Below are positions 4,579 through 34,790 of a stretch of 34,790 nucleotides of DNA, piece after piece. The stretch comes from a virus (taxonomy: Duplodnaviria; Heunggongvirae; Uroviricota; Caudoviricetes), in IMG/VR virus record IMGVR_UViG_2585427727_000020. One strand, written 5' to 3'. How positions within the stretch are numbered: the first letter of the stretch is position 1; the number at the start of each line of letters is the position of its first letter. The notes beneath the pieces were generated by a model. That model was not told the origin of the DNA and ran no database searches. It worked only from the letters and a program-made list of their open reading frames with translations. The translations under genes were made by a program, and so were the position numbers.

Positions 4579-5657
4579 CAGAACGGGTCCTCCTGTACTC
4601 TGGCTTTTTTCTTTTTCCGCGCGCCGGGGGCTTCGGGTTCAGGCAGATAAGCATCAGGTGGGCCGACACGGATTTCCGTCAGGGTGCCATTCTGGTCCTG
4701 AGTAAACGTGACTTCCGAGACAAGCAGTTCGGTATTGTCGAAACCACAGACCGGATCGAAGACAATCACCCGCTGGTTGGGCTGCCACAGCGTACCGTTA
4801 CCCTGTCGCCAGCCCTGCACCACATAGGTGGTTTCATCCGTCCGCGCCGCCCGTTGCCGGGCTTCAAAGTCAGCACGGGCAATACAGCCTGCCCCCGTGG
4901 CCTGCCCTGTCTGCCTGATATACATCGGACGGTAACGGGCAATAAATGCGTCCTCTGTGCGGGCCCGCAGCGCGGTGGTGGTGGCCTCACCGAAATCATC
5001 GTCGTTTCCGGCACGCTGCCCCGCCACCTGGTAAACTGAAAACCGCTCCCGGATACTCTTCTCCGTATCACAGGAAAGGATGTTTTCCCCAAGTACCAGC
5101 GCGGTATGTGCCCGCGTTGAGCCAATACCGCCAATCACCAGCCTGCCGTGCGGGTCGTCATAAGCCAGCGCCTGCTGCTGACCGAGTATTTTGTTGATTA
5201 CCTCAATCACCGTTTCACCGTGATCAGGCTGGACATCAGGAATAACACCCGACGGCGCACCGCTGTTCACCACCTCAATGCCGAAAGGCGCAGCAAGCGC
5301 CTGCGCAATCTGTACCAGCGATCGTCCGTTAAACTGTGTCGGTTCGGCTGCACAGTCAATCAGGTCAGCGGTCAGACTGCGTCCGGCAATACCGGTGCTG
5401 ACCGAACGGGCATCGTAACGAACGGGCGTCGCCTCCACCCAGCCGGTGATCACCAGCTCATCACCAATCAGCACCTCCACTTTTGAACCGTTTTTAATGC
5501 GCGGCTGAAGCGTGGTGATACCCTCATCTCCCGGCCACTGGCGGGTGATCTCCACACTGAAATCCCGCGCCAGTCGTTCAACACCGGCACCGATGCGCAC
5601 CGATGTCCAGCCATTCCACTCCCGGCCATTTACCCGTAGCGTGACGTTATCGTTCAT
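4578..5657 (-). CDS. Mu gp44-like baseplate hub protein
   Basis: 359-aa ORF between the DNA-circularisation-like gene and the spike gene in a Mu-type tail module; ends with a lysine-rich tail (ARKKKKARVQ). Confidence 0.6.
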   Translation of the reverse strand: MNDNVTLRVNGREWNGWTSVRIGAGVERLARDFSVEITRQWPGDEGITTLQPRIKNGSKVEVLIGDELVITGWVEATPVRYDARSVSTGIAGRSLTADLIDCAAEPTQFNGRSLVQIAQALAAPFGIEVVNSGAPSGVIPDVQPDHGETVIEVINKILGQQQALAYDDPHGRLVIGGIGSTRAHTALVLGENILSCDTEKSIRERFSVYQVAGQRAGNDDDFGEATTTALRARTEDAFIARYRPMYIRQTGQATGAGCIARADFEARQRAARTDETTYVVQGWRQGNGTLWQPNQRVIVFDPVCGFDNTELLVSEVTFTQDQNGTLTEIRVGPPDAYLPEPEAPGARKKKKARVQEDPF

Positions 5658-6982
5658 TGTACTGGCACCTTCAGAGGGATCACCGGCACAAAGCCGGGAT
5701 GCGTAATGGCATTACGCCGGATAATGTCCGCGTCACGCGCCGCGTTATCAAACCAGGTCGCCGCCAGCACCAGCGCGGGTAAAACCTCATCCGGCGTGCG
5801 CTGAATGATCCGTGCAGACTGTTCAAGGCGCGTGTTGATATCCGCATTCAGATCTGCTTTCACCCGGCGCAGCGCCAGAAACAGCGCATCACTGGTTGTA
5901 CGGGACAACTCCTTATCAATTGCCGTATTCAGTGTGTCGCGAATGTCAGTCAGTTCTTCCCACGTCGGCAGATCAACCGTGTTTTTCACCGCCGGTGCAT
6001 TGTTCAGTGCCGGATGCGTGACGGAAGGCCAGCCGGTGCTCTGCGCAGCTGTTGTTGCCTGCCCCACTGCGGCATTCTGCATCACCGCGGAAGTTGTTGG
6101 CGCAGGCAATCGGGTGACGGCATACGCCGCTTCGCTGATTGCGGTCGTACGAAGGGTGCTGGCAACCACGTTACGCTGCTGCGTCGCCGTGGCGGTGGTT
6201 TTACTGTCCGTTTTCCAGACGCCGCGCGGTTGCAGATCGCTGCCGAGGCTGACACCGGAAAGCGTTTTGATCATGGTGACCAGGTCGCTGGCGTTACCAT
6301 AAAGGCGTTTCCCGGTACGCCACATTTTCTGCACCTGCTCAACGAAATTTTTGCCTGACGATGGCGGCGGCAGAAGTACCGAGATATCCCCCTGCAACAG
6401 CCTGGCGGCATCCGATACGGCAGAATCCACCACTTTCATCGCATCAGAAATATACCCAAGCATTGTGCCGGCATTACCGACGACGTCGTTCTGCACAAAA
6501 TCTGCCACGCCATCGATACTGAAACCACTGAAACTGTCACTGATGCAGTCATCCAGTGCAGAACAGGATGACATCAGCGTCTGCGCCGTCGCCGCACCTG
6601 ATGTGGGGTAAGAGAGTTCTCCCGCTTCGACAAACTTCAGGTCAAAGCGGACAATACGCCCTTCACTTTTCGATGTGCTGACCCGAACTTCCCCGTCAAC
6701 ACAGACTTTCAGCTCACCATATGTCGGGTGGACAAGCGTGCCGGGACCGGGTTTATTCAGCGCTTCAATCAGGCGATCGCGCTGGTCAAAGCAGTCATCT
6801 CCCACCACATAAGCTGTGATGGACGGGCGGAAAGTGACTTTTCCCAGATCTTCGGTATAGGGTTTGTCGCGGTTCGGATATTCGTGTGTTTCCACACGAC
6901 GGCCGGTTCCCGCACTTTCTTCTTCAACCTTAAACGGCACACCTCGAAATGACGCATCCTGAAGCCTGTCTTTCCACGTCAT
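5654..6982 (-). CDS. Mu gp43-like DNA circularisation protein (tail module)
   Basis: About 440-aa ORF immediately after the tape-measure region; N-terminus (TWKDRLQDASFRGVPF...HEYPNRD) is typical of this family. The ATG at 6980-6982 is preferred over the ORF-track GTG at 6988. Confidence 0.7.
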   Translation of the reverse strand: MTWKDRLQDASFRGVPFKVEEESAGTGRRVETHEYPNRDKPYTEDLGKVTFRPSITAYVVGDDCFDQRDRLIEALNKPGPGTLVHPTYGELKVCVDGEVRVSTSKSEGRIVRFDLKFVEAGELSYPTSGAATAQTLMSSCSALDDCISDSFSGFSIDGVADFVQNDVVGNAGTMLGYISDAMKVVDSAVSDAARLLQGDISVLLPPPSSGKNFVEQVQKMWRTGKRLYGNASDLVTMIKTLSGVSLGSDLQPRGVWKTDSKTTATATQQRNVVASTLRTTAISEAAYAVTRLPAPTTSAVMQNAAVGQATTAAQSTGWPSVTHPALNNAPAVKNTVDLPTWEELTDIRDTLNTAIDKELSRTTSDALFLALRRVKADLNADINTRLEQSARIIQRTPDEVLPALVLAATWFDNAARDADIIRRNAITHPGFVPVIPLKVPVQ

Positions 6983-6992
6983 ATACACTCCG

Positions 6993-7020
6993 AAAAAAAA
7001 GCCACCTATTAGAAGGTGGC
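6993..7020 (-). terminator. Rho-independent terminator of the tail-module moron
   Basis: Minus strand reads a 7-bp GC-rich stem (GCCACCT / AGGTGGC, 6-nt loop) followed by eight T, starting 21 nt after the stop of the 7041-7571 gene. Confidence 0.5.
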
Positions 7021-7040
7021 CTTGTAATGAATTTTATTAA

Positions 7041-7571
7041 TTAGCGAGTCAGAAACAACGAATCTTTATACTTTTGCTGTTGTTCATTTAAATACTTAGC
7101 TGTTTCATCGCTGGCAAATGGAAATATTACCGTATTTTTAGGCATGGTAATTTCTTTTTTGTCCAGCGTCAGAGTAAACATAGGAACATACTGAGCAGAG
7201 TAACGCACCGCAGAAATGAGCTCTAGTTTAGACTCTTCAACAACACTTAAATTATCCAGGCTAACTTTCTCTTCATCTTTTTTCTTTGACGCATTTAAAG
7301 TTTTTATTACTTTATTTAATTTCTCCTGAAAATCCTCCTTAAAGTTTTCAGGATTGCCGTCGACAACAAGAATCTGTTCACCCTGATTATCTGGAAAAAT
7401 AATCTTTGCACTTATCAATTTATTTTCTTTATAAACATCACCAAGTTTTATGGCTCCTCCAGATAACTGAATAATATGTTCATCTTTAAAGGAGATGTTG
7501 CCAGAGATTATGAGAGATGAAAAAATAGCCGCTGCTCCAAGAATTACACTTGCTGTGATATAGCCTTTCAT
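7041..7571 (-). CDS. Low-GC moron: membrane-anchored hypothetical protein inserted between the tape-measure and DNA-circularisation genes
   Basis: 176-aa ORF with one N-terminal hydrophobic anchor (ITASVILGAAAIFSSLIISG) and a charged K/E-rich remainder. Far more AT-rich than flanking tail genes; own promoter-like element and terminator. Confidence 0.6.
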   Translation of the reverse strand: MKGYITASVILGAAAIFSSLIISGNISFKDEHIIQLSGGAIKLGDVYKENKLISAKIIFPDNQGEQILVVDGNPENFKEDFQEKLNKVIKTLNASKKKDEEKVSLDNLSVVEESKLELISAVRYSAQYVPMFTLTLDKKEITMPKNTVIFPFASDETAKYLNEQQQKYKDSLFLTR

Positions 7572-7606
7572 TTTTCGCCTATTAACATTTTTCTAAATGT
7601 GCATTA

Positions 7607-7634
7607 ATTCTATCACTCTATTTATGACTTACAA
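7607..7634 (-). promoter_or_regulatory. Sigma70-like promoter for the moron (TTGTAA-N16-TAGAAT on the minus strand)
   Basis: Hexamers read on the minus strand in the AT-rich gap between the tape-measure stop and the moron start. Confidence 0.35.
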
Positions 7635-7662
7635 CCAGCAATACCTGTGAGGGGAATCCTGG

Positions 7663-9495
7663 CTACCAAAATCGGGTATAGCCAACATCGTGATTTATAT
7701 CAATGCCACTGGAGCGTGTTTCCGTAACCCGCATACCTGATGGCATATTTATAAATGATACCTTGATCTCACCATCAACTTTTGGCGCGGTAGCTTTATT
7801 AATCATGAAGGGATTCGGGCCTGTGGCACCGGAGGCGTTGTTTGCCTGAGCCGGATCCACCTCCGGATAAGGAGTGTATCCCCGTGGCGGTATTCCCGTC
7901 CCATAAGCATCATAAGCACCCGCGCCCCACTGCGCCGAGTTAATGGCATCGACCGTGTCACCGGAACTGTCGGTAAACCACTCAATAATTGGCTTCAGCT
8001 TGTCCCACATATCCTGAAACCACTTAACAACCGGTCCCCAGTTATTGATCACCATTCCCAGCGGCGACCAGGCAAAAACTTTCTTCAGAAGTTCCCAGCC
8101 AGCCTCAAAATAAGGACCAATGGTTTCCCAGAGCTTCTTAAAATAAGGTCCGACAACATCCCAGTTAGTGATAATTAATCCCGCAGCCAGAGCAATCGCC
8201 GTCGCAATCATGCCAATCGGCGTCATCGACATAATCCTGCTGACAATACTGATGGCACTGCCCACGCCCATCAATCCCAGTTTCAGAATCGCAAGACCGG
8301 CAGCAAGCCCGACGACGCTGCGAATAACCCGGGGATTTTCATCCGCAAACTTCGTGAATTTTTCCCCTAACTCCCCCAGCCATTGCGTGATATTTTTGGC
8401 GTCACCAGAAAATGCGCCGCCAATAGCCGCAAGGCCGTTAGTTGCGGTCCCCGTCATTGCCTCCCACAGGTTGGACAGCGTACCAAGCTGGGCCTGAACA
8501 CGTTTATTCAGGCTAGCCTGTTTATTCATCTTCTGCTGGATCTGATCGTAACCATCCTTTCCTTTATCGATCAGAGCATTGACCACCTGAAGGGTTTCGG
8601 CATCATCACCAAATATTGCCTTAAGTACACCTGTTCGCTTAACGTCGGTCAGTTTTCGCAGCTTTGCCAGTTGCTTAAACATGTTATCAAGACCGCCAAA
8701 ACTCCCTTTGCCGTCAGTAAAATCGAGCTGCACTCCGAGTTTCTGGCGGGCCATGACTTTATTGACGTCCCTGATTTTCTTAACGCTTAATCCGGACTGG
8801 ATAACTTTTCGCAGGGCATTACCTGCCGACTCCCCGTTCATCCCCATCTGATCCATCATGACGCTGATAGGGGCAAGGCTCTGTGCAGCCTGAAGACCGT
8901 CCTTATTCACCATTTTCAGAACAGAACTGGTTTTAGTGAAGAAGGACAACATGTTGGTATCATCAACGCCCAGATAAAACGCCTTCTGGATAGTGTCGAA
9001 CAGCCCCATCATGTCTTCTGACGCCGTTCCGGTAGCATCCTGCATCTTTGCAGCAAACTCAGCAGCCGCTTCCGGTGTTTTTTTCAGTTGTACCGCAAGA
9101 TAAGCTGTCGCTTTACCCACACCACCAAGAATGTTTTCTGCCGGGATCCCCTGACGCACCAGCATCTGCATCATGTTCTGGAAATCAGCCGTTGTACCGG
9201 GTAGCTGGTTACCCAGACCAATAGCCAGTTTATTGATGTCCTGAAAGCGCTTTCCGACCTCACCGTTCGCATCCATCATGGCAACTTTCAGCCCGGTGGC
9301 GGCGTTTTCCTGATCGGCATAAGATTTCAGGGAAAGCGTCAGACCCGCAGCCAGTCCGCCACCAAGCGCCAGCCCACCCTGTGACGCTTCTTCCGCCTGG
9401 CGTTTAAATCCCCGGATTTTCTTTTGCATTTTCGACAGCGCGGGAGAAAGCCTGTCGACACCGGTGATCAACGCCTTAAGCTCAAATTCCGCCAT
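7663..9495 (-). CDS. Tail tape measure protein
   Basis: 610-aa ORF with long Ala/Gly-rich helical regions and hydrophobic segments (GLAAGLAILKLGLMGVGSAISIV), directly downstream of the chaperone pair. Confidence 0.85.
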   Translation of the reverse strand: MAEFELKALITGVDRLSPALSKMQKKIRGFKRQAEEASQGGLALGGGLAAGLTLSLKSYADQENAATGLKVAMMDANGEVGKRFQDINKLAIGLGNQLPGTTADFQNMMQMLVRQGIPAENILGGVGKATAYLAVQLKKTPEAAAEFAAKMQDATGTASEDMMGLFDTIQKAFYLGVDDTNMLSFFTKTSSVLKMVNKDGLQAAQSLAPISVMMDQMGMNGESAGNALRKVIQSGLSVKKIRDVNKVMARQKLGVQLDFTDGKGSFGGLDNMFKQLAKLRKLTDVKRTGVLKAIFGDDAETLQVVNALIDKGKDGYDQIQQKMNKQASLNKRVQAQLGTLSNLWEAMTGTATNGLAAIGGAFSGDAKNITQWLGELGEKFTKFADENPRVIRSVVGLAAGLAILKLGLMGVGSAISIVSRIMSMTPIGMIATAIALAAGLIITNWDVVGPYFKKLWETIGPYFEAGWELLKKVFAWSPLGMVINNWGPVVKWFQDMWDKLKPIIEWFTDSSGDTVDAINSAQWGAGAYDAYGTGIPPRGYTPYPEVDPAQANNASGATGPNPFMINKATAPKVDGEIKVSFINMPSGMRVTETRSSGIDINHDVGYTRFW

Positions 9496-13941: not shown

Positions 13942-15147
13942 TTACGCCACTGCAATCTTCAGCAGTTTGATGGCCTGCGAATCGACCAGCATGCCGCCGG
14001 TGCGTTTGGTGGTATAAAAACCGACAAACGGTTTATTGGTGTACGGGTCACGCAGAATGCGGGTGCCGATACGGTCAACGATGGTGTAACCCCGTTTGAA
14101 GTTACCAAATGCAATGGCTTTCGCATCAGCGGCGATATCCGGCATCTGTTCGTTTTCAGCGATACCGTAACCCGCCAGAGAGGACGGCTGCCCCAGCTCC
14201 AGCCCCGGACGCCACAGATAGTTACCCTCGCTGTCTTTCAGCAGACGGATGGCAAACAGGCTGTTGTTGTTCATCATGAACTTCGCACCGGTGCGGTGTG
14301 CCTTACGCAGTGTGTAAATAAGTTTGATAATGGCGTCTGCGGTCACCGCAGTCGCTTCGCCGGATACAATATGCTGAAGTTTGCCGAACGCCCGGACCTT
14401 ATCGGTTTCATCAGTGGATTCATACGCCAGGAACCCTTTCGGCTTCTTGGTGCCATCGCCTGAGGTAAAGGCAATTTCTTCCTGTTCGGCAAATTCGGTT
14501 GCCAGCTCGCTGTTGATCCAGGCCTCCACGTTGAAGAAGGCATCGTCCAGCATTTTCTGGGTGGCCTGCGGGTTGCCGTAGATTTCCCCCATGAGAGGTT
14601 CAATCAGCTCCAGTTTGGAGGTGGCAGTCTGGGATCGCGTATCCGTTTCCCCCACCCATCCGGAAGCCGTGCCGCCCAGATTCACCAGTTTTTTGTAGTC
14701 GGAACCGCCAACGGTGATCACCGTGGCTTCCTAGCGCATCACCACTTCATCTTTCAGCAGGGTGAGAATGTTGCGATCCAGCGCTTCCGGCACGGCATAG
14801 CCACCGTCTTCATCGGTGCCCACCTGCAATGCCTTACGCTCCAGATCGCGCAGACCATCTTCACGGCCTTTACGCAGGAAGCCCACAAACGCTTCTTTAT
14901 GCTCGGTGGCCAGTTTATTTTGCGCACCACCTGCCGGACGTTTCAGCTCAAGCAGCTCTTTTTCAAGATCGCTTTTGAGGTTTTCCAGCTCGCTGAGTTT
15001 CCCGTTCAGGGTTTCCACCTGCCCGGCAAGTTTGCCTTTTTCCTGCTCAATCGCATCCACGCGCTTGTCGTTCTTTGCTTTGAAGTCGTCAAACTTCTGC
15101 TGCAGCTCCTGCGCGACCTGTTCGACATCTTTAATATCTACCGCCAT
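13942..15147 (-). pseudogene. HK97-fold major capsid protein with N-terminal coiled-coil domain, interrupted by an in-frame TAG
   Basis: ORFs 14731-15147 (N-terminal coiled-coil, 138 aa) and 13942-14721 (capsid body) are in the same frame, separated only by a TAG at 14731-14733 and three sense codons (...EVVMR * EATVITVGGSDY...). Joined length is about 400 aa. Confidence 0.65.
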
Positions 15148-21465: not shown

Positions 21466-21588
21466 AAGTTGTGTGGCGAAGTAACCACTCATAACAGATT
21501 ACAATGGTTTCTGCGGACCGCGTGAGTGATTTTATTTAATTTTTAATGTAAATTTCAGTTCCTTTTGAGTGATTACATGGAGTACATA

Positions 21589-22404
21589 ATGAAAGTGTTC
21601 ATAAGTTGGTCTGGGCAAAGAAGTCAAGCTGTTGCAGAACTTATTAGCGACTGGCTGAAGTGTGTTATCCAAGCTTCGCAGCCATGGATTTCAACCAGAG
21701 ATATTGATCGTGGCGCTATATGGTTCTCTGAAATTAATGATAAATTAAAAGATGTATCTGTCGGCATTGTATGTTTGACACAAGAAAATAAAAATAAACC
21801 ATGGATTTTGTTTGAAACAGGAGCACTAGCAAAAGGACTTTCAACAAATAAAGTTTGTACATTCTTGATTGACTTAAAACCAGAAGATTTAAAAGATCCA
21901 CTTGCTCAATTCAATCACACAACGCCAAATAAAGAGAGTGTTTGGGAATTAGTAAGGACAATAAACAATTGTCTTGTCGATAAATCTTTAGATGACCGTA
22001 TTCTAAAGCAAGTTTTTAATACATACTGGGAGCAATTTGAAAACAATTTTAAACGAGCTTTAGATCAATACCCTCCAACTGAAGAAGTAAAACCACGTAC
22101 TGAACAAGATCTTTTATCTGAAATATTACAAAACACTCGTTCATTAAATCAAAGGATTAGAGTTCTTGAACGTGATGCTACTATCAACTCCATAAATAGC
22201 CATATGAATTTAACTCCTGTAGAACAGAAGGATGTTTGGTATCTACAAAAACAGATAGATGAAATTATAAAGAATGGATTGCTTGACGAGGATGAAATAA
22301 TATCATTCTTAGACAAATATGACATTCCTGAAAAAATGATTAGGAACCAAATAAAATACACATTAAACCAACGATTATCTGAAAGTAATAAAAAAAAGAA
22401 ATAA
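21589..22404 (+). CDS. TIR-like domain protein (N-terminal TIR-like fold, C-terminal helical domain); low-GC moron between Q and the holin
   Basis: N-terminus has the TIR-like signature order: VFISWSG strand, helix, DIDRG...W...I turn, VGIVCLT strand, then WILFETG with a Glu. Very AT-rich; opposite strand to all flanking genes. Start at ATG 21589 preceded by GGAG; alternatives at 21565 and 21577. Confidence 0.55.
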   Translation: MKVFISWSGQRSQAVAELISDWLKCVIQASQPWISTRDIDRGAIWFSEINDKLKDVSVGIVCLTQENKNKPWILFETGALAKGLSTNKVCTFLIDLKPEDLKDPLAQFNHTTPNKESVWELVRTINNCLVDKSLDDRILKQVFNTYWEQFENNFKRALDQYPPTEEVKPRTEQDLLSEILQNTRSLNQRIRVLERDATINSINSHMNLTPVEQKDVWYLQKQIDEIIKNGLLDEDEIISFLDKYDIPEKMIRNQIKYTLNQRLSESNKKKK

Positions 22405-33454: not shown

Positions 33455-34351
33455 ATGCAGTTGTATGCCTTACGTGTGTTAATGAGACCGCGCGATCCAG
33501 ACCTCTTTTCGAAAGGAGCTGTTCAGAAAGATATCTCTCATTTTGAAAATGCTATGGTTGTCGCTGCAAAAAATTTACACATGACGTCATCAACACCTTC
33601 CGTTCATAAGAAAACTAGTTACACCCTGAAATTGAGCATAAAACCTACTGATGGTGTTATGGCTGGAGTCATATCAAAGCTGCAAAAGATTAAAGGACAT
33701 GATAAAGACTTTCGAGAGTACGATGTAGACAACTATCCACCTATCGTATGGATTTGGGACAAAGTAGAGCAGGTGTTACTGGTTGAGAGGAAAACCGCTG
33801 TTTTCAAGGATGCGCAACAAGTTGCTAAAGCATTCGAAGATCTAGCCAATAACGACTATTTGGCTCAGTTAGGACTTAGAATATTTATAGAGCCTTGTCT
33901 TGAAATGGAAGATTTTTGGTCAGAATACCATAGGCTTCAATTTATCGACAAAGTCAGCTTTACGCTGATTACTCCGAATATCTTCGGAAGCAGTAAGCAA
34001 GCGTTAACCAATGATTTACGGAAGCTTGAAAAAGATACCAATGCAAATACTGTGACCACTATTTTTGAAAACAAAGATGGCAATTTGAAACTCAAAGGTT
34101 CTCATTGGGCTGAGACTCTTGTTGACTGGGTCAAAGATGGTGGCGGGTCATGGTTGATTAAAGGACGTAAGACACTCAAGTCAAAATCTACTACGGTATC
34201 CAGTAATCAGACAGCCAAAATCGTGCTGATCGAAGGTGAGATATCAGAAATTGAACTTGATGGCTACTCAGCAAATGATATTAAAGAGATCATAGCATTA
34301 CATCAAAACAGGTATACGTTCAAAAATGCAAAATCTAACTGTCTGGATTAA
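33455..34351 (+). CDS. Low-GC hypothetical protein, first gene of the SOS-box cassette
   Basis: 298-aa ORF with ATG preceded by GGAG; AT-rich unlike the prophage backbone; no family recognised, no HEXXH or other catalytic motif seen. Confidence 0.6.
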   Translation: MQLYALRVLMRPRDPDLFSKGAVQKDISHFENAMVVAAKNLHMTSSTPSVHKKTSYTLKLSIKPTDGVMAGVISKLQKIKGHDKDFREYDVDNYPPIVWIWDKVEQVLLVERKTAVFKDAQQVAKAFEDLANNDYLAQLGLRIFIEPCLEMEDFWSEYHRLQFIDKVSFTLITPNIFGSSKQALTNDLRKLEKDTNANTVTTIFENKDGNLKLKGSHWAETLVDWVKDGGGSWLIKGRKTLKSKSTTVSSNQTAKIVLIEGEISEIELDGYSANDIKEIIALHQNRYTFKNAKSNCLD

Positions 34352-34790
34352 AGCTATAGCTACCTTCTTTTTGTGCTTAGCATTAGCATCGACTGATAAA
34401 ACCATTTATACCTTACTTGAGCAGGCTTCTGCTGGAGTAATAGGTTCAATACTTGGAGGTATTGCCGCAGGTATCTCCGTTATCTTCGGAATTTTGGCTG
34501 TCATTAATAAGGGCGAGAAAAGCACAGACTTTACGGACTATTTAGATAGTTTAGAATTAGATTTGAAATTACTGGTCATGTGTCTGGCAGTAACAATCTT
34601 CCTTCCCTATTTACGTAATTATGACATACCACTAGTAAATTATCCTCAGCACGAATTTATCCCTTCTAAAGGCAAGCTATTTACTGCTTTAGAACTTTTT
34701 GCTATCGTGCTATCTCTTAACCTCATTGCAGAAGTGATTAGCTGCATGATTTTAGTGGTTAAAAAAAGTTTCAAAATTGAATCAAAGTGA
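34326..34790 (+). CDS. Small polytopic membrane protein (about 4 TM helices, glycine-zipper segment), second gene of the cassette
   Basis: 154-aa ORF overlapping the upstream gene by 26 nt; hydrophobic helices include GSILGGIAAGISVIFGILAV. The stop codon is the last 3 nt of the window. Confidence 0.6.
   Translation: MQNLTVWIKAIATFFLCLALASTDKTIYTLLEQASAGVIGSILGGIAAGISVIFGILAVINKGEKSTDFTDYLDSLELDLKLLVMCLAVTIFLPYLRNYDIPLVNYPQHEFIPSKGKLFTALELFAIVLSLNLIAEVISCMILVVKKSFKIESK

Follow-up and report, generated by a model that had tools for sequence, protein, structure and literature searches.

The genome-entry machinery is counteracted at the inner membrane by HK97 gp15, P22 SieA and SNIPE alike (PMC3594210, PMC10883804, PMC13190303). 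The paradigm of a tail-dependent block to genome entry is gp15 (PMC3594210), and SNIPE is a constitutive inner-membrane nuclease defence at the genome-entry site that associates with tape measure proteins (PMC13190303).

The locus described here, a 176-codon gene in the tail module of an Escherichia coli prophage, resembles the gene for gp15 in being a low-GC moron with a terminator, in adjoining the tape measure gene within the tail operon and in encoding a single-helix protein (PMC3594210). The two differ in that gp15 has 62 residues, belongs to a siphophage and is encoded upstream of the tape measure gene, in the gap between the chaperone and tape measure genes, whereas the protein of the present myophage carries a folded domain of about 150 residues and is encoded downstream; the statement in an earlier note on this DNA that gp15 occupies the equivalent position is therefore not supported. 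At the sequence level, gp15 matches YebO (PF13974, E 1.2e-8), the 176-residue protein has no YebO match, and alignment of its family profile with gp15 using hhalign gave a probability of 0.2%. Judged by these comparisons, the parallel with gp15 is an analogy of genomic logic and not homology.

The cassette and the slot that it occupies

The window, the whole 34,790-nucleotide stretch of DNA that was analysed, holds an SfV/SfI/SfII-like, e14-type E. coli prophage at icd, and is 100% identical to strain 1190 over the examined region. The late operon lies on the minus strand in the order sheath, tube, chaperone, tape measure, 176-codon ORF, DNA-circulation and gp44-, gp45-, gp46- and gp47-like baseplate genes (Table 1). 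As read in the earlier note, the ORF is a low-GC gene between the tape measure and DNA-circulation genes: its GC content is 0.34 and its GC3 0.30, compared with 0.51–0.59 in the flanking tail genes, and the GC content of the DNA is 0.32–0.36 over positions 7000–7700 and 0.51–0.60 on each side. The chance of 176 stop-free codons at the composition of the ORF is approximately 5.5e-7, and the dN/dS of the gene is approximately 0.08; it is a real gene under purifying selection. The start of the DNA-circulation gene downstream was placed by the ORF finder at a GTG (6988) and by RefSeq at an ATG six bases downstream (6982), which suits the GGAG ribosome-binding site better.

Table 1 Features of the cassette and of the genes on either side of it
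Feature	Position	Strand	Basis or remark
Cargo cassette	6990..7662	-	From the RBS of the DNA-circulation gene to the stop codon of the tape measure gene
176-codon CDS (phrog_5485 family)	7041..7571	-	ATG start; full-length phrog_5485 match, E 1.7e-107
Codons 2-23, predicted transmembrane helix (signal anchor, N-terminus cytoplasmic)	7503..7568	-	AlphaFold, Kyte-Doolittle, family charges
Codons 25-176, predicted periplasmic alpha/beta domain (beta hairpin, two beta-beta-alpha units)	7044..7499	-	
Promoter-like site TTGTAA-16 nt-TAGAAT, TG extended -10	7607..7634	-	36 nt upstream of the start codon
Intrinsic terminator, hairpin and T-run	6990..7023 (stem 7023..6998)	-	18 nt after the stop codon
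Tape measure gene, 610 codons, upstream neighbour	7663..9495	-	PF10145, E 5.7e-27; phrog_28, phrog_17727
Mu gp43-like DNA circulation/baseplate hub gene, downstream neighbour	5654..6982	-	PF07157, E 3.7e-34; phrog_184

The earlier note had described the insert as an optional, self-contained low-GC moron, and comparison with related prophages bears this out. In SfV, SfI and SfII both flanks match at approximately 94%, the span between them is 1084 bp compared with 1701 bp in the window, and the slot is empty. Among 5426 complete E. coli genomes the tail junction was found in 1093, of which 171 contain both junction and insert; the 673-base cassette itself, at an identity of at least 99%, is present in 179 of the 5426, and the 176-codon gene is missing from about 60% or more of the E. 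coli prophages that have the junction. The presence/absence comparison that the note had called for thus shows that the gene is not a conserved tail component of all relatives. Homology between filled and empty loci stops on the left at ...CATATA(A/C)ACTCCG, at the ribosome-binding site of the DNA-circulation gene, and on the right within the last two to three codons of the tape measure gene. Best explained as a moron, the region forms an optional cassette that is exchanged horizontally and occupies a cargo slot separating the tape measure and DNA-circulation genes.

This slot holds at least five unrelated low-GC single-gene cargos in E. coli, four of which, counting the 176-codon gene, encode envelope-targeted proteins. 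The membrane-anchored 176-residue protein (179 genomes) is joined by a signal-peptide protein of 170 residues (85 genomes), which also occurs in the viable phage SKA5, a membrane-anchored OB-fold protein of 148 residues encoded on the opposite strand (PF12869; 72 genomes), a lipoprotein of 225 residues (55 genomes) and a bacterial PH-domain protein of 125 residues (PF08000; 28 genomes). Each cargo comes with its own hairpin, and the boundaries are precise (window 6990–7662 compared with loci L001, L009, L010, L011 and L012). Profile comparison showed the other cargos to be unrelated to the 176-residue protein, and none of them matched a PADLOC model. A literature search for the tape measure/DNA-circulation slot and for the protein accession returned no description.

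The remaining elements that the earlier note had assigned to the insert, a terminator and a promoter-like element of its own, fared differently. The terminator, in which a T-run follows a stem of 10 bp, is strong (−16.7 kcal/mol, z = −3.2), yet the empty slot of SfII also has a terminator hairpin (L002 1993–2031, annotated by the SfII authors), which makes the terminator a feature of the slot and not of the insert alone. Leclercia and Lelliottia orthologues have different hairpins at this position, and the Edwardsiella orthologue has none, its next gene being 13 nt away. An Rfam scan gave only a sub-threshold Phe_leader match on the hairpin, which was taken as chance. The promoter-like element exists as TTGTAA-16-TGaTAGAAT, but the promoter scan found 2 sites compared with 2.6 expected in shuffled sequence, which is not above chance, and conservation is partial: of the whole site, only the −35-like TTGYMA is conserved, and that loosely, in Leclercia and Lelliottia orthologues.

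The tape measure and DNA-circulation genes of the late tail operon are therefore separated by an intrinsic terminator even where the slot is empty, which implies that the baseplate genes downstream depend on Q-mediated read-through for their expression. As the 176-codon gene has the orientation of the late operon, its product would also be made late in lytic growth.

Other regions of the same prophage were noted alongside the cassette. The major capsid gene (13942–15147, minus strand) has an in-frame stop at codon 139 (14731–14733), and RefSeq likewise flags an internal stop in strain 1190; given this stop, the copy of the prophage in the window is probably defective, while its 176-codon gene is intact. 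In strain D2 the gene resides in an apparently intact prophage. A gene for a 279-residue TIR-domain protein (21565–22404, plus strand), located on the opposite strand between the holin and Q antiterminator genes, matches the PADLOC candidate defence model TIR-TM (E 1.9e-57) and PF13676, and is a second moron in the same prophage. Past the integrase, at the icd-proximal end, two overlapping hypothetical genes of 298 and 154 codons (33455–34351 and 34326–34790, plus strand), neither of which has a Pfam or PADLOC match, may be att-end cargo.

The 176-residue protein and its family

The protein begins with a single hydrophobic segment (residues 5–23, Kyte-Doolittle 2.11), in agreement with the one N-terminal anchor proposed earlier, and the charged domain proposed with it corresponds to the remaining 152 residues, 30% of which are charged (pI 5.6, no Cys, no Trp). 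An AlphaFold model calculated from a 62-sequence alignment (pLDDT 92, pTM 0.76) comprises a helix of residues 2–23 (pLDDT 86–90), a short linker, a beta hairpin (residues 32–44) and two beta-beta-alpha units (residues 46–93 and 114–171). Conserved elements of the family are the N-terminal hydrophobic helix, the motif N-[IV]-I...G-x-V-x-L-G-x-V-Y-x-E just after it, and V-x-Y-x-S-E-x-x-P-x-F-x-L-T-L in a later hairpin.

Several features point to an uncleaved signal anchor followed by a periplasmic domain. Over the 62 family members the net charge changes from +1 ahead of the helix to −0.4 behind it; many orthologues have D or N at position −1 of the would-be cleavage site; one distant member has a canonical lipobox; and the only significant structural neighbour of the model is itself a lipoprotein. 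The protein is accordingly predicted to be a bitopic inner-membrane protein with a cytoplasmic N-terminus, one helix and a periplasmic domain of about 150 residues. Lipobox-like matches in several other members were rejected, as the Cys lies inside the continuing hydrophobic helix. An i-spanin (Rz-like) assignment was also discarded: the domain is a beta-rich alpha/beta fold and not a coiled coil, no spanin PHROG is matched, and the prophage has its lysis cassette, which includes an Rz1-like lysC, at another place.

The structural neighbour, found with Foldseek, is A0A2H4P829 of Pseudomonas phage ventosus (E 1.1e-6, TM-score 0.55/0.65). This lipoprotein, compared by its predicted structure, resembles the 176-residue protein in being phage-encoded and envelope-anchored, and differs from it in length (144 residues), in carrying a lipid anchor where the 176-residue protein has its membrane helix, and in sequence, with 13% identity. 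No structural neighbour of the model was found in the PDB, and phmmer against PDB sequences returned only noise. The protein had no match in Pfam at E ≤ 1, none in NCBIfam and no defence family in PADLOC-DB v2 at E ≤ 10, and none of the 62 family members was convincingly matched in Pfam, NCBIfam or PADLOC. All 62 of these aligned members match phrog_5485, for which no function is annotated. An exhaustive profile search yielded 79 homologue clusters, nearly all of 165–200 residues and with the same layout.

The insertion is not an isolated event: the family recurs in the same slot across at least five genera. Homologues with 38–58% identity occupy it in prophages of Leclercia, Citrobacter farmeri, Edwardsiella anguillarum and Mangrovibacter, where they are always low in GC (0.34–0.42) and where their divergence always exceeds that of the tube, hub and DNA-circulation proteins (56–87% identity). 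The tape measure alleles beside them differ radically, with identities of 23–75%. Between two Leclercia prophages (L004 and L020, gene at 8001–8525 and 6001–6525, respectively) the dS of the gene is 1.07, compared with 0.2–0.3 in the DNA-circulation and hub genes; a dS four to five times that of the flanks indicates that alleles of the gene are exchanged as a cassette by recombination. In these Leclercia relatives (L004 10013–11808; also L005–L007 and L020) two extra genes, of 503–507 and 94 codons, separate the DNA-circulation gene from the gp44-like hub gene; both are without a match in Pfam or PADLOC and are lacking in E. coli and L. pneumoniae, and the gap that they fill may be a second cargo slot.

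More distant relatives, at 23% identity, are found in Pseudomonas and marine bacteria on small integrative elements without tail genes, which carry serine or tyrosine recombinases, an Mrr nuclease and a DUF5906 primase. Two such homologues (L013 6634–8534 and L017 6935–8531) adjoin a small serine recombinase and follow the gene for a secreted 180-residue protein or a small membrane protein. A promoter flipped by the recombinase was considered for the Pseudomonas homologues and dropped, no convincing inverted repeats having been found. The upstream neighbour in the Pseudomonas element was unrelated to the 176-residue family by profile comparison. Searching 50,697 phage records (INPHARED) by tblastn with the 176-residue protein and the Pseudomonas homologue gave no match.

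A family member also persists outside a prophage. In Lelliottia amnigena approximately 770 bp of phage DNA is left beside icd (L008 7810–8581), consisting of the last ~190 bp of the tape measure gene, a gene of the 176-residue family and its terminator. Two Lelliottia lineages share this remnant (L031–L034). Their coding sequences differ at 8 of 525 nucleotides, giving 3 amino-acid changes, compared with approximately 27 mismatches and 4 gaps in the remaining ~540 bp, so that the coding sequence is several-fold better conserved than the DNA around it. An intact orphan after loss of the other prophage DNA argues for a benefit to the bacterium that is independent of virion production. Lying downstream of the icd terminator, the orphan would need its own promoter if it is expressed.

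Candidate roles of the 176-residue protein

The protein most likely works for the lysogen and not for the virion, and the gene is presumed to be expressed from the repressed prophage. Its long association with a single tail slot in five genera could, alternatively, reflect an accessory role in connection with the tail. For the lysogen, the leading proposal, which we put forward tentatively and by analogy with known systems, is that the protein may block superinfecting phages at the envelope or genome-entry step. Anchored on the outer side of the inner membrane, its periplasmic domain would disturb either the incoming phage's tail tube, tape measure or ejection machinery or an inner-membrane entry factor, and the incoming DNA would then fail to cross the inner membrane. 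Superinfection exclusion is favoured by the predicted membrane-proximal position of the periplasmic domain, by the bias of the slot cargos towards the envelope, by the TIR-TM gene in the same prophage and by the precedents. Counting against it are the lack of a match in the defence database, the lack of homology to gp15, a promoter-like site at chance level and the copy number of tail junctions, which shows no deficit: a second junction was present in 7 of the 60 best-matching carrier records, compared with approximately 0.12 extra copies per record overall. There is no sign in these junction copy numbers that the gene keeps related prophages out.

Of the other explanations, the best placed, though unlikely, is a lysogenic-conversion or host-fitness factor unrelated to phages. 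Such a factor might alter envelope physiology (stress or serum resistance, colonisation) or provide orphan immunity against periplasm-acting toxins such as colicin M-like proteins or cell-wall effectors of the T6SS, and morons with such roles are on record (PMC3594210). The status of the gene as optional cargo, the envelope location of its product and the Lelliottia orphan fit a host-fitness role and an exclusion role equally well. A host-fitness role also agrees with the many hosts and environments from which carriers of the gene come and with the PADLOC search, in which no defence-specific feature was found.

Alternatively, the protein could be an accessory of the lytic cycle that is made with the tail operon. 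The T5 Llp protein prevents newly made virions from ejecting uselessly into lysing cells and debris, and the 176-residue protein might likewise stop progeny from ejecting into such targets, or modulate lysis or late envelope events. The gene lies inside the late tail operon in the same orientation, the phage-encoded Q antiterminator would read through the hairpins, Edwardsiella has no terminator between the gene and the next tail gene, and the association with the tail module is a long one. Against a lytic function, the Pseudomonas and marine relatives have no tail or lysis genes nearby, the Lelliottia orphan is maintained with no phage left, and in the window the gene is intact even though the capsid gene has an in-frame stop. 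On balance we regard a lytic accessory as improbable.

Selfish or neutral cargo, of benefit to neither phage nor host and carried along in an intergenic gap that permits recombination, would account for the truncated or frameshifted copies of the gene that exist in some genomes and for its lack of an assigned function; it is made very improbable by the strength of purifying selection, by the conservation of the family with invariant motifs across gammaproteobacterial genera, and by an orphan coding sequence that is better conserved than the remnant DNA around it. A structural or assembly role in the tail, for instance as partner or chaperone to the tape measure protein, is suggested by the position right after the tape measure gene, repeated in several genera, but is largely refuted and hardly credible, given that the gene is missing from SfV, SfI and SfII, which are functional phages, as well as from most junction-bearing E. 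coli prophages, that unrelated genes replace it elsewhere, including in viable SKA5, that the adjoining tape measure alleles can be only 23–35% identical to each other, and that the protein has a membrane anchor and is not encoded by any INPHARED record.

Taking superinfection exclusion further, phrog_5485 might represent a new class of periplasm-facing, inner-membrane-anchored exclusion proteins directed against genome delivery by contractile-tailed phages, with the slot as an undescribed hot spot for swapping single-gene envelope defences (at least five cargos, in ~40% of such E. coli prophages) and with at least one gene domesticated by Lelliottia amnigena after prophage loss; this wider proposal, taken as a whole, is doubtful. 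To our knowledge, the single-gene exclusion proteins of Gram-negative bacteria that are understood are few, with almost none acting against myophages. Interest in the locus is raised by the slot, for which no description was found in the literature searched, and by the domesticated Lelliottia orphan, a natural case of retention after prophage loss. The 176-residue protein is a clearly delimited candidate that has a confident model of its structure and lacks characterised relatives, and the alternative cargos of the slot (signal-peptide, lipoprotein, OB-fold and PH-domain proteins) can be screened together with it. Should no phage phenotype emerge, the gene would be one more uncharacterised moron.

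Relation to known exclusion proteins, morons and hotspots

P22 SieA resembles the 176-residue protein in being a prophage-encoded membrane protein of similar size, and blocks DNA injection at the cytoplasmic membrane (PMC10883804). No PADLOC or PHROG annotation links the 176-residue protein with the SieA or Sie2009 families, and the comparison with them is by description only. The lactococcal Sie2009-type proteins, of ~160–170 residues, have an N-terminal anchor and an extracytoplasmic domain, the same architecture as that predicted here, and block DNA injection. SieA and Sie2009-type genes are located in early or immunity regions, unlike the 176-codon gene in its tail module. SNIPE is a nuclease, whereas the 176-residue protein, most of which is predicted to lie in the periplasm, has no recognisable domain, nuclease or other.

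Among moron products that serve the host are Bor, a lipoprotein, and Lom, an outer-membrane beta-barrel. As prophage cargo encoding envelope proteins, bor and lom of lambda parallel the 176-codon gene, and lom also lies in the tail gene region (PMC3594210). Their products have no similarity to the 176-residue protein, which is a predicted inner-membrane-anchored alpha/beta protein.

The slot itself differs from the hotspots of P2 and P4 prophages in holding single small genes, mostly for envelope proteins and none matching a known defence system, but resembles them as a fixed intergenic site in an E. coli prophage family at which low-GC cargo is interchangeable (PMC9122126).
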